Source: an uncultured bacterium (GTDB taxonomy: Bacteria; Auribacterota; Erginobacteria; Erginobacterales; CAZKCI01). Taken from it: a stretch of 64,000 bases of DNA. Both the position numbers and the translations under genes were made by a program. Within the stretch, counting starts at the first letter, position 1. The number at the start of each line of letters is the position of its first letter. The notes under the pieces were generated by a model, which worked only from the letters and a program-made list of their open reading frames with translations, did not search any database and was not told the DNA's origin. This document shows, one piece after another, positions 5,790 to 63,384 of this stretch. The DNA lies in NCBI GenBank assembly GCA_964551475.1, contig CAZKCI010000121.1, positions 14,308 through 78,307 on the forward strand. Direction: 5' to 3'.

Positions 5790-6818
5790 ATGCAGCCCGT
5801 CGGAGCGTTTATCGTGATGATCCTGATCGTCATCGGCCTCATTGTCCTCGGCTTTTTCTTCTATTTCCTGAAGATCTGGATCCGCGCCCTGGCGGCGGGG
5901 GCGCACGTCGCCATCTTCAACCTGGTGGGGATGAAACTGAGGGGGATCAAACCGGTGGTGATCGTGGACGCCAAGATCATGGCCACCAAGGCCGGGCTCA
6001 ACGTCTCCACCAACGAACTGGAGGCCCACTACCTGGCCGGCGGATCGGTGGCCAAGGTGACCCGGGCCATGATCGCCGCCGACAAGGCGGGGATCCCTCT
6101 AATCTTCAAGCGAGCCTGCGCCATCGACCTGGCCGGCCGCGACATCGAGGAAGCGGTGCGGACCTCCGTCAATCCCCGGGTCATCGACTGCCCCGATCCC
6201 TCCAAGGGGACCACCATGCTCGACGCGGTGGCCAAGGACGGAATCCGCCTGCTGGTAAAAGCGCGGGTGACGGTGCGGGCGAACCTCGACCGCCTGGTGG
6301 GAGGCGCCACCGAAGACACCATCATCGCGCGGGTGGGTCAGGGAATCGTGAGCGCGATCGGATCCTCCGAGAGCTATAAGAACGTCCTGGAAAATCCCGA
6401 CCATATCAGCAAACGCGTCCTCGACAGCGGACTCGACTCCCAGACCGCTTTCGAGATCGTCTCCATCGATATCGCCGACGTCTCGGTGGCCGGCGTCTCG
6501 GGAGTCCGGGAAGTGGCCAACGTAGGGGCGCTCCTCGAGACCGAGCGGGCGGAGGCGGACAAGAAGATGCGCCAGGCCGAGGCCGAGGGGCGGCGGGCGA
6601 CCGCGGTGGCCTTCGAGCAGGAGATGAAGGCTAAGGTTCAGGAGATGCGGGCGCGGGTGGTCGAGGCGGAGGCCGAGGTGCCCCGGGCGATGGCCGAGGC
6701 CTTCCGGAAGGGGAACATGGGGATCATGGACTTCTACCGGATGAAGAACATCCAGTCCGACACCGGGATGAGAGACGCCATCTCGAGTCTCGGGGAGAAG
6801 GGCAAGAAGCAGGAGTAA
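5790..6818 (+). CDS. floA: Flotillin-like protein FloA (UPF0365/YqfA family, SPFH domain)
   Basis: N-terminal TM helix, SPFH core and a coiled-coil C-terminus rich in AEAE; strong match to the FloA pattern (…[27 protein letters not shown]…); AGGAGG RBS. Confidence 0.85.
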
Positions 6819-6821
6819 AAA

Positions 6822-6970
6822 GGTTATCAGGTTCAGCGGTTCAACGGTTCACGGTTCAACGGTTCGGCGGTTCAACGGTTCAGCGGTTCAGCGGTTCAAC
6901 GGTTCGGCGGTTCGGCGGTTCACGGTTATCGTCATCATTTTCAACCGTTGAACCGTGAACCCTTGAACCG
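6822..6970. repeat. Tandem array of about 12 GGTTCRRC octamers followed by an inverted copy (aaccgttgaaccgtgaacc), forming a long dyad; family A copy 1
   Basis: Direct reading of the sequence; the same architecture recurs at 57458-57600 and 63306-63384, and copies 1 and 3 both begin ggttatcaggttca. Confidence 0.9.
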
Positions 6971-8886: not shown

Positions 8887-11744
8887 GCCGAGACGGAAAA
8901 CGCCGCGCCGAGGCGCCCTCCCCCCGCCGGACCCGGTCGGCCGCGGGCCAACAAGCTCCCCCGCTCCAGTTGTCCGCGGCCGGGGGCGTCCTGAACAAAT
9001 TCCGCGCCATCTTCGGGGCCGCGCGCGACCCCATCCTGCTCTTCGCCCTCGGCGAAGATTTTCTCCCGACTGCCATCGTCAATGCCAACCCCGCGGCGGT
9101 CCGTCTCCTCGGCCGCTCGCGCCGGGATCTCCTCCGCCTGAATCCCCTGGAACTGATGGGGACGGAACGGCGGAAGCACGTGGAAGAGATTCGCGACATC
9201 CTGCGCCGGCAGGGGGCCTGCGTCTTCATCGATCGCCTCAGAGCGGCGGATGGAACCGCGCGCGAGGTGGAGGTCAGCCTGACCGTCGTCAAGATCGACG
9301 GGCGCACCTTCGCGCTCAACATCAGCCGCGACCTCACCGAACAGCGAAAAACCGAACAGGCGCTGCGGGAATCGGAGCAGACCTTCCTCGCCCTGGCCGA
9401 ACAGTCTCCGACCATGATCTTCATCAACCAGGGCGGGAAGATCGTCTACGCCAACCCTTCCTGCGAAAAACTGATGGGTTACTCCCGGGCCGAGTTCTAC
9501 GCCGACGGCTTCGATTTCCTGAGGCTGATCATGCCGGAACACCATCCCGCTATCCGGGAGAATTTCCAGATCCACCAGAACGGCCAGGAAGTGACGCCGA
9601 TCGAATACGCGCTCCGAACCAAAACCGGGCCCAGGCTGTCGGCGATCACCAGCACCCGCCTGATCTATTTTCGGGGCGGCCGGGCCATCCTGGGCGTGGT
9701 CACCGACATCACCGAGCGCAAACGGGCGGAGGCGGAACTCGAGAACTACCGCCTGAACCTGGAGCAGCTGGTGGAGGAGAGGACGGCGGAGCTCTCCTCC
9801 TCCGAGCAGAAGTTCCGAGCCCTGGTGGACAACATCGCCGTCGGCATTTCCCTGATCAGCCCGGAGATGAGGATAGTGACCCTCAACGCCCAGATGCGCC
9901 GCTGGTTCCCCGCCGCTGACCCCGCCGCCGCCCCTCTCTGCTATCGCAGTTTCAACAACCCTCCCCGGGACCAGGTCTGCTCCTACTGCCCGACCATTCA
10001 GACGCTGCGCGACGGACAGGTCCACGAGGCGGTCACCGAGACCCCGGCCGGGGGAGGCATCGTGAACTACCGGGTCATCTCCTCCCCGATCACCGACTCC
10101 CGGGGAAAGGTGATCGCGGCGATCGAGCTGGTGGACGACATCACCGCCCAGCGGCAAACCGAAGAGGAACTGGAGAAATACCGCCGGCGGCTGGAGGATC
10201 TGGTCCGGGAGCGGACCGAGCAGCTGCGCCGGAGCGAGGAGATCTTCCGGATCGCCGCCCAATCCACCAGCGACCTGATCTACGACTGGGACATCGGCAG
10301 CCAGCGGCTGGAATGGCTGGGCAACATCGACCGGGCGCTGGGGTACGAGTCCGGCGAGTTCCCCCGGACCATCTCGGCCTGGGAAAACGCCATCCATCCC
10401 GAAGACCGGGGGCGGGTGCTGGCCGCCCTCCGGGACCATCTGGAACGCCGCCGGGAGTGGGAGCAGGAATACCGGATCCGCACCAAGGGCGGATCATATC
10501 GCCACTGGCTGGACCACGGCAGCGCGATCCGGACGGCGGACGGAGCCGCCTCCCGGATGATCGGCTGCTGCGCCGATGTCACCGAGAAAAATCGGATGGA
10601 AGAGGAACTCCTGAAGGCCCAGAAACTCGAGTCGGTGGGACTGCTCGCCGGCGGGATCGCCCATGACTTCAACAACATCCTCACCGGCATACTCGGCCAC
10701 ATCTCGCTGGGTCGCCTGATCGCCCCTCCCGAATCAAAAATCGCCCGGACCTTGAGCGAAGCGGAGAAGTCCTGCCTCAGGGCGAAAGCCCTGACCCAGC
10801 AGCTGCTGACCTTCTCCCACGGCGGCGCGCCGGTGAAAAAGGCCGGGCACCTGGGGGCGCTGCTGCAGGAGACGGCGGAGTTTGTCCTGCACGGATCGCG
10901 CATCAAGGTCCGCCTGGCCGTTGCCGACGACCTCTGGCCGGTGGAGATGGACGAGGGCCAGATTTCGCAGGTGATCAACAACATCGTCCTCAATGCCGTC
11001 CAAGCCATGCCCGAGGCGGGCACCATCGCCATCCGGGCCGCCAACGTCTTTCTCGACGGGGAATCCGGCCTCCTCCTGAACCCGGGGCCTTATGTCGAGG
11101 TGGAAATCTCCGACCAGGGGGCGGGAATCCCTTCCGAGCATCTCCCGCGGGTCTTCGATCCCTATTTCACCACCAAGCAGAAGGGAAGCGGCCTGGGCCT
11201 GGCCATCGCCTACTCGATCGTCAAGCACCACGGCGGAGTGATCTCGGTCGCGTCGGAGGCGGGCCAGGGCTCCACCTTCATCATCCGTCTGCCCGCCGCG
11301 CCGGGCGCGGCGATCGCGCCGGCGCCGGAGGCGGAGCTGCCTCCGGTGAGGGGGACGGGGAAAATCCTGGTGGTGGACGACGAGGAAACCGTCCGGAGGG
11401 TGGCCACGGAAATCCTTTCCCATCTCGGCTATGAAGCCAAGGATGCCCGGGGATCGTCGGAGGCGATCGAACTCTACGCCCAGGCCCGCGCCGGGGGGGC
11501 GCCCTTTTCGGCGGTGATCATGGATCTGACCATCCCCGGCGACGTCGACGGGGTGGCGGTGGCCTCCAGGATCCTCGAACTCGACCCCGCAGCGAGGATC
11601 ATCGTCTCCAGCGGCTATGCCGTCTCCCCGATCATGTCCGACTACGCCGCCCACGGTTTCGTCGGGGCGATCGCCAAGCCCTACCAGATCCGGGAGCTGA
11701 GCGAGGTGCTGGGAAGGGTACTGAATCTGAAATCTGAGATCTGA
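8883..11744 (+). CDS. Multi-PAS hybrid sensor histidine kinase (about 4 PAS domains, HisKA, HATPase_c, C-terminal receiver domain)
   Basis: H-box IAHDFNNILTGILGH, ATPase N/G boxes, C-terminal REC (KILVVDDEETVRR...MDLTIPG), repeated PAS signatures; start overlaps the upstream stop (ATGA). Confidence 0.9.
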   Translation: MSRDGKRRAEAPSPRRTRSAAGQQAPPLQLSAAGGVLNKFRAIFGAARDPILLFALGEDFLPTAIVNANPAAVRLLGRSRRDLLRLNPLELMGTERRKHVEEIRDILRRQGACVFIDRLRAADGTAREVEVSLTVVKIDGRTFALNISRDLTEQRKTEQALRESEQTFLALAEQSPTMIFINQGGKIVYANPSCEKLMGYSRAEFYADGFDFLRLIMPEHHPAIRENFQIHQNGQEVTPIEYALRTKTGPRLSAITSTRLIYFRGGRAILGVVTDITERKRAEAELENYRLNLEQLVEERTAELSSSEQKFRALVDNIAVGISLISPEMRIVTLNAQMRRWFPAADPAAAPLCYRSFNNPPRDQVCSYCPTIQTLRDGQVHEAVTETPAGGGIVNYRVISSPITDSRGKVIAAIELVDDITAQRQTEEELEKYRRRLEDLVRERTEQLRRSEEIFRIAAQSTSDLIYDWDIGSQRLEWLGNIDRALGYESGEFPRTISAWENAIHPEDRGRVLAALRDHLERRREWEQEYRIRTKGGSYRHWLDHGSAIRTADGAASRMIGCCADVTEKNRMEEELLKAQKLESVGLLAGGIAHDFNNILTGILGHISLGRLIAPPESKIARTLSEAEKSCLRAKALTQQLLTFSHGGAPVKKAGHLGALLQETAEFVLHGSRIKVRLAVADDLWPVEMDEGQISQVINNIVLNAVQAMPEAGTIAIRAANVFLDGESGLLLNPGPYVEVEISDQGAGIPSEHLPRVFDPYFTTKQKGSGLGLAIAYSIVKHHGGVISVASEAGQGSTFIIRLPAAPGAAIAPAPEAELPPVRGTGKILVVDDEETVRRVATEILSHLGYEAKDARGSSEAIELYAQARAGGAPFSAVIMDLTIPGDVDGVAVASRILELDPAARIIVSSGYAVSPIMSDYAAHGFVGAIAKPYQIRELSEVLGRVLNLKSEI

Positions 11745-11757
11745 GATCTGAGATTTT
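11725..11757. repeat. Short GARATCT heptamer array (ctgaatctgaaatctgagatctgagatctgagattttt) forming the 3' end of the kinase gene and its T-run; family B
   Basis: The last 6 codons (NLKSEI) and the stop codon of the kinase lie inside the repeat. Confidence 0.8.
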
Positions 11758-13241
11758 TATTCGCTCCACCTCCCGGCCATCAACTCGCCGTCCTCCCCGT
11801 CCACCTCCCCGTCTCCGTTAAGATCGGCCGGGCCCGATCCCGTCCCGAAGGCGCTCATCAGAATCCCGTAGTCCCGGCTGTCCACCACGCCGTCGTCGTT
11901 GAGATCGGCGTCGATCGGACGGAGCAGGATCGCCGCGGCATGGGGCGGGAGAGTCAGCGAATCGACGGAGGCAAAGGACAGGCTTCCGGAGGGGAGGCCG
12001 TTCTCCGGGACCGCCCCTCCCCCGCTCGCCGAGACCAGGCGGAAACTCCCGCCCAGATCGGAGATCTGCCGAGTCGCCTCCGCAGGGTTCACCAGCACTA
12101 ATCCTTCCTCGTAATCGCGGCGATAGACGTTCCAGGACGAGTCATAAAGACCGGCGACGGCGGCGGGAATCTCCCCGAGGTAGCCGCCGAGGTCGATCTC
12201 GTATTCAGGGAACCACTCGCAGTCCACCTCCGCCCCGGAGAGCGTGACGTAGGTCTGGTTCCCCTTGATCAGAAGGCAGCAACCGACGAGAAACATCCTC
12301 TCCCGATAGTCGGCGACGGGGGGATCGCACTCGAGAAGCAGGATCTTCCCGGCCCGGGCGAGGGCGAGCAGGCGGTCCATCTGGAGGACCCAGTCGGAGG
12401 GATCATAATAATCCCCCGGCCCCCATTCGCCGAAACCCTCGTTCATGCCTCCGTCGCCCAGGGCGGCGTAATCGGTGGCGTCCCAACCCGTCACCAGGCC
12501 GCCCAGATTGGGGAGAAAATAGAAGTTCTCGGTTTGGGCGGCGAAGGCGGACCGGATGCAGGAAGCATACGATTCCAGGTGGGGTATCCAGCCGGCGAGG
12601 CAGGCATCCACGTCGTTGAACCAGGGATGGGCGCTCGCCACCTGTCCGAAGTAGCCGTCGATGGTGAAGGAATCGGCGAAGACGCCGTCGCACTCGGTCC
12701 GCCGCATCTTCGTGAGGCAGGAGGCGACCCAGTACTCAGGATAGCCGGTGGAGGGAGCGGACCCGTTGCATGTGATGTCCATGACATACCATCCCCAGCC
12801 GCTCTGATGGACTCTCTCCCCTCCCCAGAGAACGAACCAGTCGTCCTGGCCGGAGACCGGTCCCGCGCCGGCATAGGAGCGAAAATCGGCTAGGCCGTCG
12901 TCCCAGTCCTGAACCCAGTCGTCTCCGTCGATGAAATGAAACGGTCCCTGGCCGAGGCCGAGCTGATAATGGAGGACAAGAAAATCCCGGTTGTGGCTCC
13001 GCAAAGTCCTGGCTTCGGAGAGGAGAGCCTTCTGGCAGCCGGCATAATGGGTGGCGGCGAATCGCCACTGTTCGTCCGTAAGCCAGGAAGGAAGCTGGTC
13101 GTAGAAAACGCGGATCTCCTCCCGGGTGTCGGGAAAGGGTCGGCGCGCGGCCGGGGAGAGGGGGGGAAGCGCGAACAGCGCCAGAATCATGGAGGAAAAG
13201 GCAACCGGCCGTCGAGCGATCATGCCTCCCTCTCCGAACAC
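11757..13241 (-). CDS. Secreted protein with putative glycoside-hydrolase-like domain and C-terminal type-I dockerin repeat pair
   Basis: Signal peptide; C-terminal DLNDDGVVDSRDYGILMSAF and DLNGDGEVDGEDGELMAGRW match the dockerin Ca-binding repeat consensus; N-terminal domain not confidently assigned. Confidence 0.7.
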   Translation of the reverse strand: MFGEGGMIARRPVAFSSMILALFALPPLSPAARRPFPDTREEIRVFYDQLPSWLTDEQWRFAATHYAGCQKALLSEARTLRSHNRDFLVLHYQLGLGQGPFHFIDGDDWVQDWDDGLADFRSYAGAGPVSGQDDWFVLWGGERVHQSGWGWYVMDITCNGSAPSTGYPEYWVASCLTKMRRTECDGVFADSFTIDGYFGQVASAHPWFNDVDACLAGWIPHLESYASCIRSAFAAQTENFYFLPNLGGLVTGWDATDYAALGDGGMNEGFGEWGPGDYYDPSDWVLQMDRLLALARAGKILLLECDPPVADYRERMFLVGCCLLIKGNQTYVTLSGAEVDCEWFPEYEIDLGGYLGEIPAAVAGLYDSSWNVYRRDYEEGLVLVNPAEATRQISDLGGSFRLVSASGGGAVPENGLPSGSLSFASVDSLTLPPHAAAILLRPIDADLNDDGVVDSRDYGILMSAFGTGSGPADLNGDGEVDGEDGELMAGRWSE

Positions 13242-13242
13242 A

Positions 13243-13395
13243 GCGATCAGTAATCAGTGATCAGTGATTTCAACTTTCAGATTTGAGATCTCAGATTTGA
13301 GGTCTGAAATTTGAGATCTGAAATCTGAGATCTGAAATTTGAAATCTGAGATCTGAAATTTGAAATCTGAGATTTGAGATTTGAGATTCCGGATC
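13243..13395. repeat. Composite heptamer array: CAGTRAT units (13243-13275) then about 17 YTGARAT heptamers; families C and B
   Basis: Every unit falls on a strict 7-bp phase (ttcagat ttgagat ctcagat ttgaggt ctgaaat ...). Confidence 0.9.
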
Positions 13396-14685: not shown

Positions 14686-14785
14686 ACTAATAGTTAGCAC
14701 GCGAGAAGGGGGAAAGCAAATCAAGGAAGGGGTGTTTCTCCCATTCACCATTCACCATTCCCTATTCCCCATTCACTATCTGTTC

Positions 14786-15547: not shown

Positions 15548-15585
15548 TTTACGTGTTACGTGCAACGTGCCACGTGCCACGGCCA
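15548..15585. repeat. ACGTGYA heptamer array (acgtgtt acgtgca acgtgcc acgtgcc acgg) between pstB and pstA; family H
   Basis: Same heptamer as the 20940-21010 element. Confidence 0.7.
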
Positions 15586-15632
15586 CCCTGGCAGCGGTTC
15601 ATCGCCTTTCTCCGGTTTCACTCCGCCCTTAT

Positions 15633-20935: not shown

Positions 20936-20939
20936 TGCG

Positions 20940-21010
20940 CAACGTATGACGTGCAACGTGTAACGTGCAACGGCCCTGACCGGCGATCCGTTCCACGTTA
21001 CACTTTACAC
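20940..21010. repeat. ACGTGYA heptamer array followed by its inverted copy (dyad) between the ferredoxin gene and mrpG-like gene; family H
   Basis: acgtatg acgtgca acgtgta acgtgca acgg ... ccgttccacgttacactttacacgtcacgcg. Confidence 0.8.
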
Positions 21011-21011
21011 G

Positions 21012-21341
21012 TCACGCGTTCTTATCCTTATGGTAATCGTCTCTCACGCTCCCCTTCCACAAACCCACGCCGGAGCGATGCGCCGCCCGGGCGATGGCAT
21101 GGGCGGCGACCGGCGAGGAGAGGAGCAGAAAAAGGATGCAGAGAAGGCATTTGATCCCGCCGGCGGTGAAGCCGAGCATGAGAAAAGTGCCGAAAAGGAT
21201 GGACGAGGTCCCCAGGGTCACGCACTTGGTGGAGGACTGGAGGCGGTTGTAGAGGTCGGGGAAACGGATCAACCCCAGGCACCCCACGAGGTCGAGAGCC
21301 AGTCCAAAAACCACGAAGACCATGCCGAGCGCGTCACTCAT
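21012..21341 (-). CDS. Mrp/Mnh antiporter subunit G-like (MbhC-like)
   Basis: Three-TM small subunit with the MnhG family pattern. Confidence 0.75.
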   Translation of the reverse strand: MSDALGMVFVVFGLALDLVGCLGLIRFPDLYNRLQSSTKCVTLGTSSILFGTFLMLGFTAGGIKCLLCILFLLLSSPVAAHAIARAAHRSGVGLWKGSVRDDYHKDKNA

Positions 21342-24094: not shown

Positions 24095-24175
24095 CCATTG
24101 TAGGCCGGTTCTGTGAACCGGCGACCAGCCTCGCCGCCCGCTCACAGAGCGGGCCTACAGCCCGCACGACCGAGC
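24095..24175. repeat. GTAG-type REP pair (CTGTAGGCC plus hairpin, then an inverted copy) inside the hydrogenase operon; family E
   Basis: tgtaggccggttctgtgaaccggc ... gcccgctcacagagcgggcctacag; same family at 36538-36600 and 45514-45630. Confidence 0.85.
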
Positions 24176-28656: not shown

Positions 28657-28685
28657 GATTTAGTCAGGGCCACGGCAGCCAGTTA

Positions 28686-29171
28686 TCATTTGTCATTTAT
28701 CATTTTACATTGGTCAAGCGGCTTCGGCGCGGCCCGACAGGGAGTTTTTCTCAGGGGGAACTTCTTGTCTTTCCACTCCTCGCTGGTCAGCAACCGCTCG
28801 GTCGACGCTCGCCCCTTGAACTCGATCCCCAGGAGCTCGGCCATCTCCCGCTCGATCCAGTCGGCGGCGGGGACAAGGTCGGCGATGGAGTCGACCGCCG
28901 GCTTCTCCTTCCCCAGCCTGACCCGCAGCGAAAGGAAAACGCCGGAGCGGTCGTCGGAGAAATGGTAGAGGACCTGGAAGCCCTCCATCGTCTCCACGCC
29001 GCTCGCGATGCTGAAACGGAAGCCAAGGTCGCGGAAGGCGGCCCCGGCCACGGGGCGGACGGAAGCGGGACGGATCTCGGCGTAGATCCGCTGGGGGCTC
29101 TTCTCCTCCCACTGCAAAATTTCCGAAGGAAATTTTGAGGAGAAATATGTCCGCATCTCTGCCGCGTTCAT
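28686..29171 (-). CDS. NuoC-like (30 kDa) hydrogenase subunit (MbhK/HycE N-terminal-domain-like)
   Basis: NuoC family pattern (…FQVLYHFS…LSLRVRL…); start chosen at MNAAEM. Confidence 0.75.
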   Translation of the reverse strand: MNAAEMRTYFSSKFPSEILQWEEKSPQRIYAEIRPASVRPVAGAAFRDLGFRFSIASGVETMEGFQVLYHFSDDRSGVFLSLRVRLGKEKPAVDSIADLVPAADWIEREMAELLGIEFKGRASTERLLTSEEWKDKKFPLRKTPCRAAPKPLDQCKMINDK

Positions 29172-31036: not shown

Positions 31037-31065
31037 GAGAGAGTCAGAGGCGTCCGAGATCCGGT

Positions 31066-31140
31066 GTAATGTGTAAGGTGTAATGTGTAATGAAAAACTG
31101 ACTGGCCATTATTACACCTTACACTTTCCACCTTACACCC
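31066..31140. repeat. GTGTAAK heptamer array with inverted partner (dyad) between the ferredoxin and HydG-like genes; family H variant
   Basis: gtgtaat gtgtaag gtgtaat gtgtaat g ... ttacaccttacactttccaccttacacc. Confidence 0.8.
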
Positions 31141-37563: not shown

Positions 37564-38275
37564 CACAACCCCTTCGGGGTTGATGGCGGCATCGGCTCCC
37601 CCAACCCGGGGTAGCGCCTCCGGCGCAACCCCGGGCTATGCGATGGAATCCCGTTGGGATTCGGCCTCCGGCGACAATGCCAAAAGATCTGGATTGGGAA
37701 TCGATGCCGGAAAACGCTGTTCGACGACGGCTGGTCCCAACAAAATCATCTTCGATCACCCAGACGTCTTGCCCCTGTGAACGCCACTTTGAAAGTTATC
37801 TTCTTCACCCGGTTTGAAATCTCCCTTTCGGGCCGGCGGTCACATGCCCCAACGGGGCAACGTCCCCTAGCCCAGGGTTGCGCCGGAGGCGCTACCCTGG
37901 GTAAACGACACGCATCGCCAGGCCAACCCCAACGGGGTTGTGTCCCCTAGCCCAGGGTTGCGCCGGAGGCGCTACCCTGGGTAAACGGCGCGCAACGACA
38001 GGCCAACCCCAACGGGGTTGCATCCCCTAGCCCAGGGTTGCGCCGGAGGCGCTACCCTGGGTAAACGACACGCAGCGCCAGGCCAACCCCGACGGGGTTG
38101 CGTCCCCTAGCCCAGGGTTGCGCCGGAGGCGCTACCCTGGGTAAACGGCGCGCAACGACAGGCCAACCCCAACGGGGTTGTGTCCCCTAGCCCAGGGTTG
38201 CGCCGGAGGCGCTACCCTGGGTAAACGACACGCAACGACAACCAACCCCAACGGGGTTGCATCAAAGGAGAACGG
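37560..38275. repeat. REP array upstream of the RAYT: one inverted-orientation unit (37560-37690), a diverged spacer, then five tandem 80-bp structured units
   Basis: Unit cccctagcccagggttgcgccggaggcgctaccctgggtaaacgacacgcaacgacaggccaaccccaacggggttgcgt; contains nested hairpins and a GTAG (as CTAC) tetranucleotide. Confidence 0.9.
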
Positions 38276-38277
38276 CT

Positions 38278-38733
38278 ATGCCACAATCGTTGTCATGCGT
38301 CTACGTCCACCTGGTATTTTCGACGAAAAATCGGGTCCCTTTCATTCGGGAGATGGCGCTACGCGCGGAATTGCAGGCCTATCTGGGCGGGATTTCCAAG
38401 ACATTGGAATGCCCGCCAACCATTGTCGGCGGAACGGATGATCACGTACACATGTTGTGTCGTTTGGGGCGGACGATCGCGCAGGCGAATTGGGTCAAGG
38501 AGGTCAAGCGCGTGTCCAGCGCCTGGATCAAGCAACACGATCCGACGCTGGCGGATTTTGCCTGGCAGACCGGATATGGCGCGTTTTCGGTAAGCGTGTC
38601 AAATCTGGAAAAGGTCCAGGCATATATCTCCAACCAGGAAGAACATCATCGTCAACAATCCTTTCAGGACGAATACCGTGCGTTTCTGAAAAAACACGGC
38701 TTGGAATGCGATGAACGGTATATGTGGGATTGA
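38278..38733 (+). CDS. REP-associated tyrosine transposase (RAYT; IS200/IS605-like Y1 HUH transposase TnpA-REP)
   Basis: HUH motif DDHVHMLCRL, catalytic Tyr in AWQTGYGAFSVS, about 150 aa, flanked on both sides by REP arrays; AAAGGAGA RBS 6 nt before ATG 38278. Confidence 0.85.
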   Translation: MPQSLSCVYVHLVFSTKNRVPFIREMALRAELQAYLGGISKTLECPPTIVGGTDDHVHMLCRLGRTIAQANWVKEVKRVSSAWIKQHDPTLADFAWQTGYGAFSVSVSNLEKVQAYISNQEEHHRQQSFQDEYRAFLKKHGLECDERYMWD

Positions 38734-38739
38734 TAGGTG

Positions 38740-39430
38740 TTGACACAACCCCTTCGGGGTTGACGGGGATATTGCTCTCGTATACCCGGGGTAGCGCCTT
38801 CGGCGCAACCCCGGGCTACATGACAGAATCCCTTTGGGATTCGTCCCCCGCAATTGCCCAAAAGGGGCAATGTCCCCTGGCCAAGCATTGCGCCAAAATC
38901 GTCCGATGGAATCCTATTGGGTATTCGGCTCCTGCAACAACGCTGGGATGCCGAGTACGGAAACCTCACCTGCAACACCATCCCAAACAATATTGTGAGG
39001 CATTCGTTAACCCCAACGGGGTTGCGTCTCCTAGCCCAGGGTTGCGCCGAAGGCGCTACCCTGGGTAAACGACACGCAACGACAGGCCAACCCCAACAGG
39101 GTTGCGTCTCCTAGCCCAGGGTTGCGCCGGAGGCGCTACCCTGGGTAAACGGCGCGCAACGACAGGCCAACCCCAACGGGGTTGCGTCTCCTAGCCCAGG
39201 GTTGCGCCGAAGGCGCTACCCTGGGTTAACGACACGCAACGACAGGCCAACCCCAACGGGGTTGCGTCCCCTAGCCCAGGGTTGCGCCGAAGGCGCTACC
39301 CTGGGTAAACGGCGCGCAACGACAGGCCAACCCCAACGGGGTTGCGTCCCCTAGCCCAGGGTTGCGCCGAAGGCGCTACCCTGGGTTAACGACACGCAAC
39401 GACAGGCCAACCCCAACGGGGTTGCGTCCC
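38740..39430. repeat. REP array downstream of the RAYT: inverted-orientation unit (38740-38870), a diverged spacer, then five tandem 80-bp units
   Basis: Same unit as the upstream array; 38740-38870 and 37560-37690 share ttgacacaaccccttcggggttga...cccggggtagcgcc. Confidence 0.9.
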
Positions 39431-40529: not shown

Positions 40530-40554
40530 TCAGTAACTGATCACTGATAACTGA

Positions 40555-40854
40555 TCACTGGTTGATCCCCGGCACTACCTCTCCTTCCGGCAGGGCGGCG
40601 CGGAGCTCATCGTACAGCCGCGACGGATCGCCGGACGGATATTTCTCGTAGCGGACCTTTTCCCAGCCGACACCGATCAGCCCCCAGAGAATTGCCGCCA
40701 GAACACCGATCAGCAACCACCTTTCCTGGACGGTGAGGCGGTCGAGACGGGTCAGCGATAAAAAGCGTTCCTCCGCCGCGATCAGTCGTTGACGAAGGGA
40801 AGACAGGACGCGGGAGAGAGAACGGTCCTGGGCGTCGGGCGCAATCATGAGCAC
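40555..40854 (-). CDS. Small hypothetical membrane protein
   Basis: 99 aa with one central TM helix; lies directly upstream (in transcription order) of the M50 gene. Confidence 0.4.
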   Translation of the reverse strand: MLMIAPDAQDRSLSRVLSSLRQRLIAAEERFLSLTRLDRLTVQERWLLIGVLAAILWGLIGVGWEKVRYEKYPSGDPSRLYDELRAALPEGEVVPGINQ

Positions 40855-43630: not shown

Positions 43631-44353
43631 ATGAACGCGAACACCTACGCTGCTATCGGCGAATCCTTCCCTCCCCTCTCCTCACGGGAACCGGATGCCG
43701 CTTTCGTTGCCCGCTGGGAGAGGGAGAACGAGCGCCTGCGGGAGATCGTCCTGTCGGTCAAGGCCGCCGATGAAAAGGTCAAGGATGAGGTTTTGCGGGC
43801 GGGCCTGATGGACCCCCGAAATGCCGTCATCCGGGAGGAGATCAAGTCCTTCTGCGCCATCCCCTACCGGCGTCGGGAGGGACCGCTCGCCCCCTGCGAG
43901 GGAATCACCTACGGTTGGAAAGGCTGTCCACCCCATTCCCCTCCGGTCGCTGAAACCATCTCGCTCCTGCGCTCCGCCTCCGCCTTCCTCATCCTTCAAT
44001 TCAGCGGCCTCAAGCATCACTCCTTCCAGAAGCACATCCACGAGTTCACGCTCTCGCTGGAAGCGGTTCTCCGGGGAAAGGGATGGAAGGTTCTTCAGAG
44101 CTACAGCACCGGCCCCTGCCGTCTCTGCGCCAAGGGGTGCGCCGAAAGCGGGGACTGCCGTCAGCCTCAGAGGAGACGCTTCGCCCTGGAGTCCTGCGGT
44201 TTCTGGGTGAAGAGCCTCTGCCGGGCGGCCGCCCGCTTTCCCCTCTGCGGAGACGGGGAGTGGGAGATTGAGTGGATCCGGGACTGGAACCTGCCCTCCC
44301 AGTCCCCCCCTACCTACCGGGCGGTGACGGGGATACTGCTGGTACATGGGTGA
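43631..44353 (+). CDS. Cys-rich predicted metal-binding protein (DUF2284-like)
   Basis: Several Cys pairs (CEGITYGWKGC, CRLCAKGCAESGDC, CGFWVKSLC). Confidence 0.6.
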   Translation: MNANTYAAIGESFPPLSSREPDAAFVARWERENERLREIVLSVKAADEKVKDEVLRAGLMDPRNAVIREEIKSFCAIPYRRREGPLAPCEGITYGWKGCPPHSPPVAETISLLRSASAFLILQFSGLKHHSFQKHIHEFTLSLEAVLRGKGWKVLQSYSTGPCRLCAKGCAESGDCRQPQRRRFALESCGFWVKSLCRAAARFPLCGDGEWEIEWIRDWNLPSQSPPTYRAVTGILLVHG

Positions 44354-44651
44354 AGGTTAGGAAGTGGGTCTGGGGGATAGGTCAGGGTCAGGTTAGGCCA
44401 GACGGGCTACACTATTAACCTTACCCATTTACCAGACCATCATCCTTACCCTGACCCATCGACCCCGATGGCAAATGGGTAAGGGTCAGGAAGTGGGCCT
44501 GGGGGATGGGTCAGGGTCAGGTGGGGCCAGACGGGCTACACTATTAACCTTACCCATTTACCAGACCATCATCCTTACCCTGACCCATCGACCCCGATGG
44601 TACATGGGTAAGGGTCAGGAAGTGGGTCTGGGGGATGGGTCAGGTCGATGG
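44341..44651. repeat. About 129-bp structured tandem repeat, 2.4 copies, spanning the DUF2284 stop codon to the nfo stop codon
   Basis: Copies start at 44341, 44469 and 44599; each unit holds internal inverted segments (aaatgggtaagggtcagg... versus ...ccttaccctgacccat). Confidence 0.9.
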
Positions 44652-45513: not shown

Positions 45514-45630
45514 CTGTAGGCCCGTTCTGCGAACGGGCGGCCGGGCTCGAACGCCGGTTCACAGAACCGGCCTACAGTCTCTGACGAAGCGTCCGCCCGC
45601 GGTCGGTAGGCCCGCTCTGCGAGCGGGCGT
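45514..45630. repeat. Three GTAG-type REP units in alternating orientation (family E) between nfo and the aminotransferase gene
   Basis: ctgtaggcccgttctgcgaacgggcgg / gccggttcacagaaccggcctacag / ggtaggcccgctctgcgagcgggcg. Confidence 0.85.
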
Positions 45631-46854: not shown

Positions 46855-46900
46855 GACAGGGAAATATAACGGGAGGAAGGGGGAGAGGGCAAGAGAAGGT

Positions 46901-48664
46901 TCAGGGTTCTATCCTCGCCATCCTCTCCGGGGCGGTCACGCCCATGATCCCGAGCCCCTCGGCGATCACCGCCCGCACCGCCCAGGAAAGGGCGAGGCGG
47001 GCGAGAGTCACCGCCTTCTCTTCCCCGATCACCCTTTGCCGGTTGTAATAATTATGGAAGGCCCCCGCCAGTTCCTCCAGATAGCTGGGGAGGAGATGGG
47101 GCTGGAAGGAGGCGGCGGCCTGGCGCACCAGCTCGGGGAAGGCGAGGACGAGCTTGATCACCTCCATCTCCTCGGGGAGAACCAGGGGAGAGAGATCCGC
47201 CGAGCCGGGATCGGCGAGATCCTCCCCTCCCCCATCCCGATGCTTGCGGAAGATGGAGCAGACGCGGGCGTGGGCGTACTGGACGTAATAGACGGGGTTG
47301 TCCGGGGACTGCTTCTTGGCCAGCTCCAGGTCGAAATCGAGGGGGGACTCCTTGCGCCGGCGGACGAAGAAATAGCGGGCGGCGTCGGTGCCCACGTCCG
47401 CCATCACCTCGCTCAGGGCGACGAACTGGCCGGCCCGGGTGGACATCCGGACCTCCTCCTTCCCCTGGAAAAGCTTGACCAGCTGCACGATGATCACGTT
47501 GAGCCGCTCCGGATCGCGGCCGAGTGCCTGGAGCGCCCCCTTCAGGCGGACGATGTGCCCATGATGGTCCGGGCCCCAGAAGTCGATCAGGAGATCGAAG
47601 CCGCGGGCGAGCTTGCGGACATGATAGGCGATGTCGGAGGCAAAGTAGGTGAGGTCGCCCCCGGTCTTGGTCAGCACCCGGTCCTCCTGGTCGCCATGGG
47701 AGGTGGAGCGGAACCAGAGGGCGTCGTCCCGCCGGTAGGTCTCCCCCCGCCGGTCGAGTTCGGCCAGAACAGAGGCCACCGCGCCGGAGGCGACCAGCTC
47801 CTTCTCGCTGATCCAGGAGTCCATCCGGACGCGGAAACCGGCGAGCTCGGAACGGTTGAGAGCGAGAAGCTCGTCCATGGCGAACTGGGTGCAGAAATCC
47901 AGCGCCGCTTCCTCGGGCAGATCGGAGAGCGCCCGATCCCTTCCCGGAAGAGGGCCGGCCGGGATCTTCTTCGCCACGTCGATCAGGTACTCTCCCCGGT
48001 AGTGGTCCTTCGTGAACTCCGCCGTTTTTCCCCGGAGCTCCTGCCATCGAAGATAGAGCGACTGGCCCAGGTTCCGCATCTGGCGGCCGCGGTCGTTCAA
48101 ATAATACTCCCGCGTCACCCGGAAACCCGCCTTGATGAGGAGGCTGGCCAGCGTGTCTCCCACCGCCGCCTGGCGTCCGTGGGCGACGGTCAGCGGGCCG
48201 GTGGGGTTGGCGCTGACAAATTCCAGGAGGACGCTGCGTCCCTTCCCCTCATCGCTCTCCCCGAAACGGCCGGAGCGGGAAAAGACGGCGCGCAGAGCCT
48301 GCTGGAAGGCGCGGGGGGCGAGGCGGAAGTTGAGGAACCCCTTTTTCGGATCGGCTTCGACGGCCCGGACCGGATAGCGGTCCTTCTCCGGCCGAGTGTT
48401 GATGATCTCGGACAAGACGGCGGCGATGGCGGCGGGCGGGCGGCGGAGGGGGGCGGCCAGACGCATGGCGACGTTGCTGGCGAGATCCCCGTGCGACCGG
48501 TCGCGGGGAGGCTCCAGCACGACGGCGGGCAGGTCGGCTTCCGGCAGGCTGCCCTTTTTCACCGCTTCCCGGAAAGCCTCCCCGACGAGTCCGGCGATCT
48601 TCTGTCGAATCTCGGGCGTCACGATCCTGTTCCTGGGGACATCTGGATCTAGGGGATATCCCAC
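46901..48664 (-). CDS. argS: Arginine--tRNA ligase
   Basis: Class I aaRS with ArgS-specific N-terminal and DALR anticodon-binding domains; 587 aa. Confidence 0.9.
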   Translation of the reverse strand: MGYPLDPDVPRNRIVTPEIRQKIAGLVGEAFREAVKKGSLPEADLPAVVLEPPRDRSHGDLASNVAMRLAAPLRRPPAAIAAVLSEIINTRPEKDRYPVRAVEADPKKGFLNFRLAPRAFQQALRAVFSRSGRFGESDEGKGRSVLLEFVSANPTGPLTVAHGRQAAVGDTLASLLIKAGFRVTREYYLNDRGRQMRNLGQSLYLRWQELRGKTAEFTKDHYRGEYLIDVAKKIPAGPLPGRDRALSDLPEEAALDFCTQFAMDELLALNRSELAGFRVRMDSWISEKELVASGAVASVLAELDRRGETYRRDDALWFRSTSHGDQEDRVLTKTGGDLTYFASDIAYHVRKLARGFDLLIDFWGPDHHGHIVRLKGALQALGRDPERLNVIIVQLVKLFQGKEEVRMSTRAGQFVALSEVMADVGTDAARYFFVRRRKESPLDFDLELAKKQSPDNPVYYVQYAHARVCSIFRKHRDGGGEDLADPGSADLSPLVLPEEMEVIKLVLAFPELVRQAAASFQPHLLPSYLEELAGAFHNYYNRQRVIGEEKAVTLARLALSWAVRAVIAEGLGIMGVTAPERMARIEP

Positions 48665-48672
48665 TCGTTCGA

Positions 48673-48782
48673 TGGTGGGAGCGACATTCTTGCCTGCCCC
48701 GATAGTCCCGGCAGAAGTGCGGGACTATCGGGGTCGCGATCCGAGTCAACCTGGATCGGGGCGAGACGCCCCTCCCACATAT
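48673..48782. repeat. Family-D palindromic element (tattgtgggagcgacattcttgcctgccccgatagtcccgg...cccctcccacatatgg)
   Basis: Near-identical to the 27216-27330 copy. Confidence 0.85.
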
Positions 48783-48836
48783 GGACGAAACAGCGATCAG
48801 TTACCGATCACTGCTCACTTCAGTTTCAGTTACTGC

Positions 48837-49220
48837 TTACTTTAGCTTGGGCGCGTCTCCCCAGAGCGTCTCCAGGGAGTAGAAGGAGCGGACGGCGGGA
48901 AGAAAAACGTGGATGAAGACGTCCCCGCAGTCCATCACCACCCAGCGGCCGGCGCGGAGACCCTCCATGCCCAGGACGGGGATGCCGGCCTTTTCCAGGC
49001 TCTCCTCGATCGCGCGGGCGATCGCCTCCGCCTGCCGTTCATTATGCGCGGTGCAGATAAAAAAGACATCGGCGAGAGGAGTGATCGCGCGCATATCCAG
49101 CGCCACGATATCCTCCGCCTTCTTCTCTTCCGCCGCCGCCCGGGCGATCCGGACGGTCTCCCGCGCGGGCCAGGTCCGTTTCCGGACGGGCGCCTTTCTC
49201 GTCTTCTTCGTGTTTTTCAT
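48837..49220 (-). CDS. rsfS: Ribosomal silencing factor RsfS (Iojap)
   Basis: Iojap family pattern (DIVALDMR...FFICTAHNERQAEAIA...VHVF). Confidence 0.85.
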   Translation of the reverse strand: MKNTKKTRKAPVRKRTWPARETVRIARAAAEEKKAEDIVALDMRAITPLADVFFICTAHNERQAEAIARAIEESLEKAGIPVLGMEGLRAGRWVVMDCGDVFIHVFLPAVRSFYSLETLWGDAPKLK

Positions 49221-49864: not shown

Positions 49865-49960
49865 AAAGTATGAAAACAGTCGTAAGTTATAAGTTGTAAG
49901 GAAACAGCCGATCGCCAGGAGAAAGCGCGCTTATAACTTACAACCTACAACTGTTTCTTC

Positions 49961-51094
49961 CTACAGTATCAGCAGATTGTCCCGGTGCACGACTTCCTCG
50001 TAATCGAGGCGGCCCAGGAGGGCGGCGATCTGGGAGGTCTTCTTCCCCCGGATCCTCTTCAGATCCTCCGTCCCGTAGTTGCTGAGCCCGCGCGCGAACT
50101 CGATCCCATCCGGACCCGCTATCCCCACCATCTCGCCCGGACGAACATCGCCCGCGATGGCGGTCACACCCGAGGCGAGCAGGCTCTTCCCCCGGGAGAC
50201 CAAGGCCCGGCGGGCGCCGTCGTCCACCGTAATCGTCCCCTTTCTCTGCCGGGAGAAGGCGATCCACCATTGTTTCTCGCCGGCCCGCTTGGGATCGGCC
50301 AGAAACAGGGTCCCGGTGGGGCGGCCTTCGATCAGCTCGGCGAGAACCCCCGGCCGGCGGCCGGAGGCGATCGCCATCATGCCGCCGCTCCGGGACATGA
50401 TCCGCCCCGCCTCCATCTTCGATCGCATCCCGCCGCGGGAGAGCTCCTTGTCGGAGCCGCCGGCCAGTCCCTGGAGTTCCGGCGTGATCCGCTCCACGAT
50501 CGGGATGACGGAGAGGCCGGAGCCTTGGGGGCGAAGCAACCCCTCCACGTCGGTGAGAAGGACCAGGAGCTCGGCCCGGATCAGCACGGCGACCAGGGCG
50601 GCGAGATAATCGTTGTCGCCGAACTTGATCTCGTCCACCGCCACCGAGTCGTTCTCGTTGATGATCGGGACCACGCCCCCCTGGAGCAGCGAGAAAAGGG
50701 TGTGGCGCACGTTCAGGCGGCGGCGGACATCCTCCCGGGTGAGCAGGATCTGCCCCACGGTCAGGCCGTGGGCGGCGAAGGCGGTCCGATAGAGATGCAT
50801 CAGACCCGCCTGGCCTACCGCCGCGGCGGCCTGCAGGCCGGGCAGGTCGCGGGGGCGGCCGGGGAGCTTGAGCTCCAGCACGCCGGCGCCGATCGCCCCG
50901 GAGGTGACCAGGACCACGTCCTTCCCCCGCCGGCGGAGATCGGCGATCTCGGCGGCGATCTTCCTGATCATCTCCGGGTCAAGCGGAGTGCCCTTCCCGG
51001 TGAGAAGATAGGTCCCCACCTTGACCACAATTCTCCGCACGGGCCGGAGCAGCGCCGCGCGATCGACCGATATTCCCGATGATGAGCTTTTCAT
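49961..51094 (-). CDS. proB: Glutamate 5-kinase with PUA domain
   Basis: Amino-acid kinase fold (VVKVGT..L) plus C-terminal PUA. Confidence 0.9.
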   Translation of the reverse strand: MKSSSSGISVDRAALLRPVRRIVVKVGTYLLTGKGTPLDPEMIRKIAAEIADLRRRGKDVVLVTSGAIGAGVLELKLPGRPRDLPGLQAAAAVGQAGLMHLYRTAFAAHGLTVGQILLTREDVRRRLNVRHTLFSLLQGGVVPIINENDSVAVDEIKFGDNDYLAALVAVLIRAELLVLLTDVEGLLRPQGSGLSVIPIVERITPELQGLAGGSDKELSRGGMRSKMEAGRIMSRSGGMMAIASGRRPGVLAELIEGRPTGTLFLADPKRAGEKQWWIAFSRQRKGTITVDDGARRALVSRGKSLLASGVTAIAGDVRPGEMVGIAGPDGIEFARGLSNYGTEDLKRIRGKKTSQIAALLGRLDYEEVVHRDNLLIL

Positions 51095-52837: not shown

Positions 52838-53094
52838 GCTCCCTGTGATTGGTGTCTGATCAAGGTGGTATATTAACAGCGAACGCCCTTCTGTCAAGCC
52901 GGATTATGGCCGATTATGGCCGAGAATCCTAAGCTTCCCGTCGTAATCCGGCGTTTGTTCCGTTGCGGGCGCCTCCTGCTTCCGGAATCTATCGCACCAG
53001 GGCAGCCTGCTCCTGATTCGCGGGTATGTTCATTCCCGCGAATTAGTCACTTTCCCGACCACATACACGCTTCTGCGTGTATGTTGTTATGTCC

Positions 53095-53300
53095 TATTGT
53101 GGGAGCGGCGTCTCGCCGCGATCCGAGCCAACAGGATCGGGCCGGGGACGGCCCTCCCACATTGACAACTTTTATGCGCGTGTAAGATCCTATTGTGGGA
53201 GCGGCGTCTCGCCGCGATCCGGGCCAACAGGATCGGGGCCCCGATCTTGATATGCATCTAATCGTAATCGGGGCAGGCAGGAATGCCCCTCCCACAATAA
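53095..53300. repeat. Three family-D palindromic element copies upstream of the rplU operon and downstream of rng
   Basis: tattgtgggagcggcgtctcgccgcgatcc...ccctcccaca, three times. Confidence 0.85.
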
Positions 53301-53368
53301 TATATTTCCAGCTTTCTTCGTGCCTTGGTGCCTTTGTGGCATAATTGGGTTGCGGGCGTCAGCCGGCC

Positions 53369-57466: not shown

Positions 57467-57600
57467 CGGTTCAGCGGTTCAACGGTTCAGCGGTTCAACG
57501 GTTCAGCGGTTCAACGGTTCAGCGGTTCAACGGTTCAGCGGTTCAGCGGTTCAGCGGTTCAACGGTTTAAAGGCAACCGTGAACCTTGAACCGTGAACCC
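57458..57600. repeat. Family-A GGTTCRRC octamer array (about 13 units) plus inverted arm
   Basis: ggttcaacggttcagcgg... then aaccgtgaaccttgaaccgtgaacc. Confidence 0.9.
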
Positions 57601-60484: not shown

Positions 60485-60625
60485 GAGAGATAATCTCAGA
60501 TTTCAGATCTCAGATATCGGATCGCGAATCTCGGATTCGGGATTTCGGATCGTGGATCCCGGTTTGAAATCTCAAATCCCAGCTATCAAATCTCAAATCT
60601 GAAATCTGAGATCTCAAATCCTCCG
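60481..60625. repeat. About 20-unit heptamer array whose first half (tYtcRga) is the reverse complement of its second half (ctSaaat), forming a giant dyad between mrdA and mreD; family B
   Basis: tctcaga tttcaga tctcaga ... ttgaaat ctcaaat ... ctgaaat ctgagat ctcaaat, every unit on a 7-bp phase. Confidence 0.9.
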
Positions 60626-63305: not shown

Positions 63306-63384
63306 GGTTATCAGGTTCACGGTTCAGAGGTTCACGGTTCAGGGGTTCACGGTTTTCCCCCCCCAACCGTTGAACCCTTGAACC
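63306..63384. repeat. Family-A GGTTCA-core array plus inverted arm (copy 3)
   Basis: ggttatcaggttcacggttcagaggttcacggttcaggggttcacgg ... aaccgttgaacccttgaacc. Confidence 0.85.

Follow-up and report, generated by a model that had tools for sequence, protein, structure and literature searches.

The 64,000-nt stretch of DNA analysed here (the window; contig CAZKCI010000121.1 of assembly GCA_964551475.1, from an uncultured bacterium) carries three copies, A1 to A3, of an intergenic element built from tandem GGTTCA units, which we call Family A. Our main finding, which is well supported, is that Family A consists of dispersed extragenic palindromes with arms of tandem 7- or 8-nt units, one arm being amplified, and that it is one member of a larger class of heptad hairpins found at gene ends.

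Three elements with a common plan

Direct reading and a script parse placed the copies at 6822–6969 (A1), 57460–57599 (A2) and 63306–63384 (A3). All three follow the same plan, in which a direct array of units is followed by a short loop and then by two to three inverted units. Canonical GGTTC(R)(N)C units number 12 in A1, 13 in A2 and 5 in A3. The parts of the elements are listed below.

6822–6829, +: A1 left edge GGTTATCA, a variant unit common to A3, 4 nt past the floA stop codon (6816–6818)
6830–6930, +: A1 direct array, 12 GGTTC units of 7 or 8 nt and a closing GGTTATC
6931–6942, +: A1 loop GTCATCATTTTC, 12 nt
6943–6969, +: A1 inverted tail AACC GTTGAACC GTGAACC CTTGAACC; the next gene starts at 7010 or 7022
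57460–57567, +: A2 direct array, 13 octamers and GGTT
57568–57574, +: A2 loop TAAAGGC, 7 nt
57575–57599, +: A2 inverted tail AACC GTGAACC TTGAACC GTGAACC; rodA stop at 57637
63306–63313, +: A3 left edge GGTTATCA, an edge also present at the orthologous site of relative L122
63314–63354, +: A3 direct array, 5 units (GGTTCAC / GGTTCAGA / GGTTCAGG) and GGTT
63355–63364, +: A3 loop TTCCCCCCCC, 10 nt, C-rich
63365–63384, +: A3 inverted tail AACC GTTGAACC CTTGAACC, ending 3 nt before the hflX stop codon (63388–63390, − strand)

The array of A1 is drawn from GGTTCAGC, GGTTCAAC, GGTTCAC and GGTTCGGC, with GGTTATC as its closing variant. In A2, GGTTCAAC and GGTTCAGC mostly alternate, and Tandem Repeats Finder (TRF) reported this array as a 16-nt double unit present 6.8 times with 97% matches. 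TRF also detected period 8 (12.5 and 13.5 copies) and period 7 (5.6 copies) at the Family A arrays.

That the three loci form one sequence family with one design, as proposed in the preliminary description of this DNA, is confirmed by the parse and by a search with GGTTCRNCGGTTC allowing at most one mismatch. This search gave 29 matches in the window, every one within A1–A3, against an expectation of 1.25 and a largest count of 4 in 100 dinucleotide shuffles. The conserved 5′ edge of A1 and A3 noted in that description is likewise exact (GGTTATCAGGTTCA). Other details held only in part. The range of 6 to 13 units per array is obtained if GGTTATCA variants are counted, but not from the canonical units. 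The loop, described as AT-richer, is C-rich in A3, and the consensus given for the tail is exact in A1 and matches A3 with one extra base, but fits A2 only loosely.

The predicted folds of A1–A3 have energies of −35 to −65 kcal/mol (z = −3.6 to −6.3, both strands), and GGTT-loop-AACC forms the innermost pairing in every case. As the arms consist of repeated units, the short tail fits any register of the long array, which in A1 means any stretch of ~3 units; in the minimum-energy fold of A1 the tail is paired to the distal end of the array. The loops (7–15 nt) and the flanks of the three copies are mutually unrelated.

The arrays are identical across two Joint Genome Institute (JGI) assemblies, and two Logan assemblies contain them in part; they are therefore not an artefact of a single assembly. 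Exact unit numbers come from short-read assemblies near the assembler k-mer limit and should be read with caution. The same organism is present in the Logan short-read contigs L117, L119 and L120 (runs SRR12667042 and SRR11848694), the ends of which fall inside the A1 and A2 arrays. As contigs end inside them, the arrays evidently fragment assemblies and may be under-represented in metagenome-assembled genomes (MAGs).

Position relative to genes

According to Pfam and JGI gene calls, A1–A3 are all intergenic and lie in short spacers between co-directional genes.

A1 spacer, +: floA to an open reading frame (ORF) of 146 aa
A2 spacer, −: rodA to a radical-SAM gene
A3 spacer, −: hflX to mreB

A1 begins 4 nt past the TAA of floA, and A3 lies 3 nt past the TAA of hflX on the − strand. 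A2 lies ~35 nt past the TAA of rodA (34-nt gap; 37 nt to 57637), and on the − strand its array reaches right to the radical-SAM gene, for which the called TTG start (57466) is supplied by the last A2 unit on that strand, GTTGAACC. The earlier proposal that the elements sit at gene 3′ ends in the manner of repetitive extragenic palindromic (REP) sequences thus holds for all three copies.

On the transcribed strand no T-run follows the stems of A1–A3, and a scan with an intrinsic-terminator consensus called none of the full elements. A promoter scan around A1–A3 gave nothing that matched the elements, and a scan of the whole window against Rfam 15 at gathering score returned 0 matches. Three further candidates were rejected for A1–A3. 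The units are contiguous and 7–8 nt long, whereas a CRISPR array has 24–48-nt repeats with unique spacers; a coding repeat does not fit arrays that are intergenic with a period that is not a multiple of 3; and an integron attC site would require the GTTRRRY core, which is lacking.

A fourth copy that varies between strains

A fourth copy, A4, was found at the 3′ end of argS, where the window retains only a relic.

46898–46909, +: A4 relic GGTTCAGGGTTC, 12 nt, at the argS 3′ end, holding the argS stop codon (− strand)

Contig L205 (Ga0393266_0000038) equals the window over 22.6 kb bar one substitution and one indel (99.99% identical). At its argS 3′ end (6491–6574) it has a full hairpin, GGGGTCAGGGTTCGGGGTTCAGG and CCTGCCCCTGAACCCTGAACCCTGAACC separated by 27 nt, where the window has an 8-nt filler and the last 12 nt only. 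The difference amounts to the replacement of 84 nt by 5 nt, a net 79 nt. In both variants the argS ORF continues beyond its usual end (...ERM) into the repeat, where a unit supplies the TGA that terminates it; this adds 5 residues in the window (46901–46935) and 31 in L205 (6440–6600). With no further copy in 16 kb of additional flank, Family A comes to three copies and one polymorphic copy in ~80 kb, all of them extragenic and 3′ of a stop codon.

Orthologous sites in relatives

A metagenome scan with PBP2 identified a sister species (PBP2 86% identical), a relative at 82% and a relative at 60%. The sister species, JAEAMG010000059.1 (GCA_016294955.1), is syntenic with the window over 30 kb. 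At the A2 site it carries GGTTCCAGGGTTCAGGGTTG-CTTT-CAACCGTTGAACCCTGAACC, a plain hairpin with 2–3 GGTTCA units per arm and no long array, and in the 60% relative the element is absent, with ~5 nt from rodA to the radical-SAM start. Since the sister species has the hairpin without the array, we conclude that the hairpin is the older part and that the array is a lineage-specific expansion. The 97% identity among the 6.8 copies of the A2 double unit indicates that this expansion is recent. The long direct array, which the preliminary description took as a fixed part of the design, is therefore a late addition to an older short hairpin. The start of the radical-SAM gene (57440–57470) has changed as well. 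The window has CTG in place of the ATG of the sister species, and the 19-nt unique leader of the sister species is gone.

At other sites the units themselves have changed. At the A3 site, upstream of mreB, the 60% relative shares the GGTTATCAGG edge, behind which come GGTATCAG units and inverted CTGATACC. At the A1 site, AAATCCG/AAATACG heptamers and then an inverted copy are present in a relative whose FloA is 94% identical. At the argS site the sister species has GGTTCAGG and CCTGAACC separated by 14 nt, then five to six CTGACAC heptamers. In the proB–nadD spacer the window has GTTGTAA/TTACAAC arms, and the sister species a direct array of GTTACAC. Between PBP2 and rodA there is 1 nt in the window; the sister species has 139 nt there, including a GTCAGGT hairpin, and the 82% relative >170 nt, which include GAAGTCA and GTACACG arrays. 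The dominant family also differs, being CCTGACA (three sites) in the sister species versus GGTTCA (four sites) in the window.

As to the position of the host, its FloA hints at MAGs labelled Kiritimatiellia or Verrucomicrobia (~75% identity), and its LeuRS, at ~57%, is nearly equidistant from Thermodesulfobacteriota, Kiritimatiellia, Lentisphaerae and Omnitrophota.

Heptamer and octamer families throughout the window

TRF and direct reading revealed at least 12 other families of 7- or 8-nt units in the window. Family A, treated in the preliminary description as a special design, is thus one of at least 12 heptamer/octamer families of the same architecture. The unit families include CTGAGAT/ATCTCAA, CAGTGAT/TAACTGA, CCATTCA, ACGTGCC, AACGTGC/GTTACAC, GTGTAAT/TTACACC, GTTGTAA/TTACAAC, ATTTCGG and GGGTCAGG. 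Most of the other families build hairpins of inverted arrays, which occupy the spacer from the stop codon almost to the next start, and the operon spacers that bear arrays include those of the pst operon, an mbh/mrp-type hydrogenase cluster and mreD–PBP2.

Other heptamer/octamer arrays: 11721–11754, 13241–13388, 14741–14776, 15558–15586, 20939–21020, 28683–28716
Other heptamer/octamer arrays, continued: 31064–31139, 40534–40560, 48780–48850, 49868–49965, 60493–60620

Paired inverted arrays with at least three tandem units were found at A1–A4 and at 20939–21020, 31064–31139, 49868–49965 and 60493–60620. In a census of the window based on JGI gene calls and restricted to spacers of at least 40 nt, 7/8-nt arrays occurred in 13 of 38 spacers, namely 12 of 28 tandem, 1 of 5 convergent and 0 of 5 divergent ones. 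Three more arrays overlap gene ends in spacers below 40 nt. The density of 7/8-period arrays per kb was 0.27 in the window, 0.28 in the sister species and 0.05 in distant relatives (719 kb).

Several further repeats were noted. Between convergent genes at 44346–44644 lies a 129-bp unit repeated 2.3 times, made of GGGTCAGG/GGGTAAGG octamers and inverted CCTTACCC/CCTGACCC, with a predicted fold of −138 kcal/mol over 286 nt. TAACTGA units (40534–40560) stand directly upstream of the start of an M50 peptidase gene, and CAGTGAT units (48800–48850) are found downstream of rsfS. A separate REP-like family that bears GTAG, GTAGGCCCGGACTATGTCCGGGC, has single copies at 24100–24159 and 45515–45575 and occurs in the sister species as a 46-nt tandem unit (L123, 17349–17496). 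A palindromic family, TGTGGGAGGGG...CTCCCACA, recurs in the spacers 48623–48836 and 52838–53368.

The rodA-downstream spacer in a Desulfobacterota clade

The remaining PBP2 matches, with RodA ~42% identical, gave a set of 49 non-redundant loci (among L124–L200) from a clade labelled Desulfobacterota/Syntrophales-like after the MAG source names, in which the gene 3′ of rodA is convergent. In the 110 nt after rodA the best autocorrelation period was 7 in 29 loci and 8 in 17, that is, 7 or 8 in 46 of 49, compared with 25 of 245 random windows from the same loci and 1 of 49 windows inside rodA. An autocorrelation of at least 0.45 was reached by 20 of the 49 spacers, by one of the 245 random windows and by none of the 49 windows inside rodA. 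The fold z-score was below −2 in 28 spacers and below −3 in 21 (n = 49). At least seven unrelated unit families follow rodA: ATTCCGC, GAGGACT, GGTTCAAG-type 8-mers, AGTTCGG, TTGCAGA, GTCATTG and ATAGCNG. As the unit families differ by lineage, the architecture of inverted 7/8-mers has been retained here while its sequence was replaced.

Distribution beyond this genome and tests for mobility

That the three loci might be the only copies had been named in the preliminary description as a result that would count against the family, as had a match to known mobile-element termini. Neither was found. In addition to A4 and the sister ortholog, MAGs of Verrucomicrobiota, Kiritimatiellia, Lentisphaerae and Desulfobacterota contain look-alikes. 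An exact-pattern scan of GTDB genomes gave at least 115 loci. A large share of the loci that were parsed turned out to be perfect microsatellites of the form (GGTTCGGC)n or (GGTTCAGC)n, from Streptomyces, Burkholderia and other taxa, and with so many microsatellites among the matches listed the scan gives no measure of unit enrichment. Mixed 7/8-mer GGTTCA arrays with inverted partners were seen in Verrucomicrobiota, Kiritimatiellia, Lentisphaerae, Smithella, Desulfonatronum, Desulfobacterales and a Deltaproteobacteria MAG. The latter has a ~200-nt composite three times in 8 kb, bounded by GGTTCAC and inverted GTGAACC arrays, with one sharp end, beside a stop codon. A Verrucomicrobia MAG has at least two copies with a common 120-nt centre between such arrays. 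Conserved internal sequence between arrays is thus confined to other genomes (L007, L032). GTAG or GTAA is frequent just outside copies because many start a few nt past a stop codon. The same pattern gave 2 matches in viral contigs, which indicates no phage link.

At the boundaries of A1–A3 we found no target-site duplication (direct repeat of at least 3 nt) and no terminus of an insertion sequence (IS), and neither GTAG nor CTAC occurs within 20 nt of their ends. A single gene of the window is transposase-like, namely a Y1_Tnp gene (IS200/IS605-type, 126 aa, ~38353–38733, + strand) that resembles REP-associated tyrosine transposases (RAYTs). Its flanks hold no GGTTCA units. They consist of tandem arrays of an 80-bp unit (37847–38260 and 39009–39428, 5.2 copies each, 91–95% identity) containing the palindrome CCCAGGGTTGCGCC-GGAG-GCGCTACCCTGGG, which is unrelated to GGTTCA. 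The Y1_Tnp gene of the sister species encodes 151 aa and is flanked by 83-bp arrays (L212, 14118–14333 and 14955–15307). A loss of the RAYT in sister strain L213 was considered and rejected, as the apparent gap is a scaffold run of Ns.

The T-arm motif of tRNA also begins with GGTTC. In a Bacteroidales MAG (L029, 2–54) a perfect array of seven GGTTCAAC units lies directly upstream of a tRNA-like sequence, which is probably a coincidence.

Comparison with known repeats

Our literature search found no paper containing Family A unit strings, and we know of no sequence similarity of Family A to the short tandemly repeated repetitive (STRR) sequences STRR1-3 of cyanobacteria. The likeness to STRR sequences lies in the tandem 7-nt units, the several unrelated families, the intergenic location, often within operons, and the capacity to form hairpins. 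Family A differs in its unit, GGTTCA(N)C, in its mixture of 7 and 8 nt, in having one arm amplified (5–13 versus 2–3 units) and in its non-cyanobacterial host. The 7-bp STRR repeats between hupS and hupL form hairpins with a proposed effect on transcript stability (PMC2670836); for STRR sequences in general, the proposed roles are in transcript stability or translational coupling (PMC2670836; 10.1101/2022.06.06.494920), and in a Nostoc preprint heptamer repeats are reported to influence promoter activity and, modestly, the expression of a reporter (10.1101/2022.06.06.494920).

Inverted pairs of tandem octa- and heptanucleotides are also known from intergenic regions of Geobacter metallireducens (PMC2700814). 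The class 1–3 sites described there, named putative global regulator binding sites, have three to five tandem octa-, nona- or heptanucleotide units (GTTGCTYN, TCTCCGTS[Y], MTYCTGA) in inverted pairs at variable distance, occur at dozens of intergenic positions and are confined to one species of the genus (PMC2700814). Binding of IHF/HU to these paired sites has been proposed, although untested (Aklujkar et al. 2009; PMC2700814). The window likewise holds paired inverted arrays of 7- or 8-nt units in many spacers, a likeness by architecture alone. The unit sequences differ, and Geobacter class 1 has an IS association, whereas none was seen for Family A.

Heptamers are the commonest long simple-sequence repeats (SSRs), and a slippage origin was proposed for them (Mrazek 2007, as cited in PMC4679880). 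TAACTGA, one of the units in the window, is a plentiful intergenic direct repeat in marine Beggiatoaceae, cyanobacteria and Bacteroidetes (PMC4679880). Family A shares with these repeats the heptanucleotide direct units, the intergenic location, the patchy occurrence across phyla and the attribution to slippage. However, those repeats are described as direct repeats that mostly stand just upstream of start codons, and inverted partners or hairpins do not figure in the description. As with STRR sequences and long SSRs, in which units of 5–11 nt (typically 7) stand head to tail, the arrays of the window are tandem 7/8-nt units beyond chance, non-coding and of several unrelated families. By this analogy, and as one part of the overall reading below, the heptad hairpins of this lineage may be the counterpart of cyanobacterial STRR sequences, the long SSRs of Mrazek and the Geobacter paired sites, a correspondence that we judge could go either way.

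The comparison with REP sequences, which the preliminary description drew, stands for position only. In E. coli, REP sequences stabilise mRNA 3′ ends and act as partial terminators. Each stem consists of a unique palindrome, with GTAG on its 5′ side, and a RAYT mobilises the elements. Family A resembles REP sequences, bacterial interspersed mosaic elements (BIMEs) and REP doublets (REPINs) in consisting of extragenic imperfect palindromes after stop codons and within operons, multi-copy and species-specific. It differs in lacking GTAG and in having stems of tandem short units, and the RAYT-like gene is flanked by another repeat. Family A is therefore REP-like by position and lacks the REP/REPIN hallmarks of GTAG and cognate RAYT flanks. 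It also lacks the target-site duplication and the conserved internal sequence of miniature inverted-repeat transposable elements (MITEs).

Origin and possible role

Our overall reading is that these elements are slippage-amplified, REP/STRR-like hairpins at gene ends that probably act on mRNA; we consider its chances of being right and wrong to be about equal. The core would be an imperfect hairpin of ~20–25 bp, with 2–3 units, a 7–15-nt loop and 2–3 inverted units directly 3′ of the stop codon. One arm would have grown to 5–13 units through slipped-strand mispairing, eased by the multiple pairing registers of the short arm. Growth and shrinkage of the arrays by such mispairing is suggested by the near-perfect 16-nt period of A2, the unamplified sister ortholog and the strain-level deletion. 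The elements would be transcribed in polycistronic mRNA and fold into long stem-loops, which might serve as barriers to 3′ exonucleases or as partial terminators independent of a U-tract and so set the ratio of upstream to downstream cistron, with unit number as a fast-mutating tuning parameter. A REP/STRR-like role of the RNA stem-loop at cistron ends, for and against which the chances seem roughly balanced, is suggested by the post-stop position, the absence from divergent spacers and the rodA-end hairpin retained across lineages.

Several observations weigh against this reading. The preference for 7/8-nt units is strict and finds no explanation in it. Three arrays have no inverted partner (14741–14776, 15558–15586 and 28683–28716), and that such direct-only arrays persist suggests a cause at the DNA level or a purely mutational one. 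Relative to transcription, A1 has its long arm on the 5′ side, A2 and A3 on the 3′ side, and the strand-specific fold stability of A1–A3 shows no consistent preference for the mRNA strand, so that only a strand-symmetric hairpin role fits. In an RNAalifold alignment of nine related GGTTCAAG-type rodA hairpins, compensatory changes were seen in 3 of 22 pairs and the signal was mostly conservation. With covariation this weak, the argument depends on the turnover seen between groups, a pattern that independent re-origin could produce as well. As to how Family A entered new spacers, we infer from the presence of one unit at four unlinked sites, in a lineage whose sister is dominated by another unit, that there was some copying between sites, for which local slippage is insufficient.

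Other explanations account for parts of this picture. Gene-end hairpins might drift into arrays through slippage or hairpin-templated correction, with a step of 7–8 nt and no function. Such a neutral by-product would fit the variation of unit number between close relatives, the partial deletion at A4, the complete turnover of unit sequence between lineages and the different arrays in the PBP2–rodA spacers of three related species (1, 139 and >170 nt). It also matches the careless rather than designed look of A2, which overran the radical-SAM leader and start, and of A4, which overran the argS stop region, and polymerase slippage has been proposed for heptamers by Mrazek (as cited in PMC4679880). 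We nevertheless think it rather unlikely, as a periodic hairpin is kept downstream of rodA in 46 of 49 lineages despite turnover, arrays occur in none of the five divergent spacers, and one unit stands at four unlinked sites, two of them with an identical 14-nt edge. These last copies, and the common edge GGTTATCAGGTTCA of A1 and A3, would also fit a mobile MITE- or REPIN-like element with GGTTCA units as transposase or recombinase sites at its inverted termini, of which the window would hold minimal copies. The species-specific dominant families (GGTTCA in the window versus CCTGACA in the sister), the varying presence among relatives, the ~200-nt composite and the 120-nt common centre in two MAGs, and the occurrence of the same design in MAGs labelled as several phyla could all be taken in this sense. 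However, A1–A3 show neither target-site duplication nor GTAG and have unrelated loops and flanks, the A4 variant is an untidy partial deletion that left a relic behind rather than an empty site, the sole transposase-like gene is flanked by a different 80-bp repeat, and only two matches fall in viral contigs. In addition, A2 is orthologous in the sister species and thus old and vertically inherited. A mobile element is therefore clearly unlikely in our view.

We regard as improbable that the arrays act as duplex DNA, with a nucleoid-associated or ribbon-helix-helix-type protein binding each 7/8-bp unit cooperatively. The proteins omega and ParG bind heptad or octad arrays of plasmids in this way, and the period of 7/8 bp is strict across many families, direct-only arrays occur, and the orientation is constant on the chromosome and variable relative to transcription. 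The IHF/HU hypothesis for Geobacter (PMC2700814) and the promoter effects in Nostoc (10.1101/2022.06.06.494920) point in the same direction. Yet more than 12 unrelated units per genome would need many proteins or a non-specific one, 7- and 8-nt units are mixed within an array, which breaks fixed phasing, the arrays keep away from divergent promoter regions and lie close to stop codons, and no candidate protein was identified. Finally, strong stems directly past stop codons would be expected of canonical Rho-independent terminators, but none of the three hairpins is followed by a T-run, the consensus scan calls no full element, the spacers are short and co-directional, and A2 abuts the next start codon; we hold this explanation to be very improbable.

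Significance of the heptad hairpins

Taken together, Family A is real and adds to a known but unexplained kind of heptamer repeat, and the general heptad-hairpin pattern is of greater interest than the three loci themselves. On a practical level, such arrays interrupt short-read assemblies and can displace the annotated start or stop of a gene, as in the radical-SAM start and the argS extension.

A bolder possibility, to which we give only a small chance, is that heptad hairpins form a distinct and actively maintained class at gene ends in MAGs labelled as several phyla, in parallel with the cyanobacterial heptamer repeats, with an architecture conserved at orthologous spacers and units replaced by lineage. 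Each genome would then have its own dominant families spreading between unlinked spacers, and a dedicated mechanism that writes, copies or reads 7–8-nt periodic hairpins would be implied. Candidates would be replication or repair stepping in heptads, a new kind of non-autonomous mobile element without target-site duplication, or a periodic RNA- or DNA-binding protein. Such a class might also represent a U-tract-independent terminator or stabiliser code in PVC (Planctomycetes, Verrucomicrobia, Chlamydiae) and Desulfobacterota lineages.

Tandem heptamer repeats have been reported for 35 years from cyanobacteria, Geobacter, Beggiatoa, Burkholderia and Xanthomonas, with no demonstrated function or origin. 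The locus described here adds a lineage in which they occupy about a third of the intergenic spacers. It also provides new comparative handles, namely a conserved hairpin without the array at an orthologous site, a strain-level indel, and a rodA-end spacer that keeps a 7/8-periodic hairpin in dozens of lineages while the units change. These make it testable whether the hairpins are functional RNA 3′ structures and where the 7-nt step comes from.

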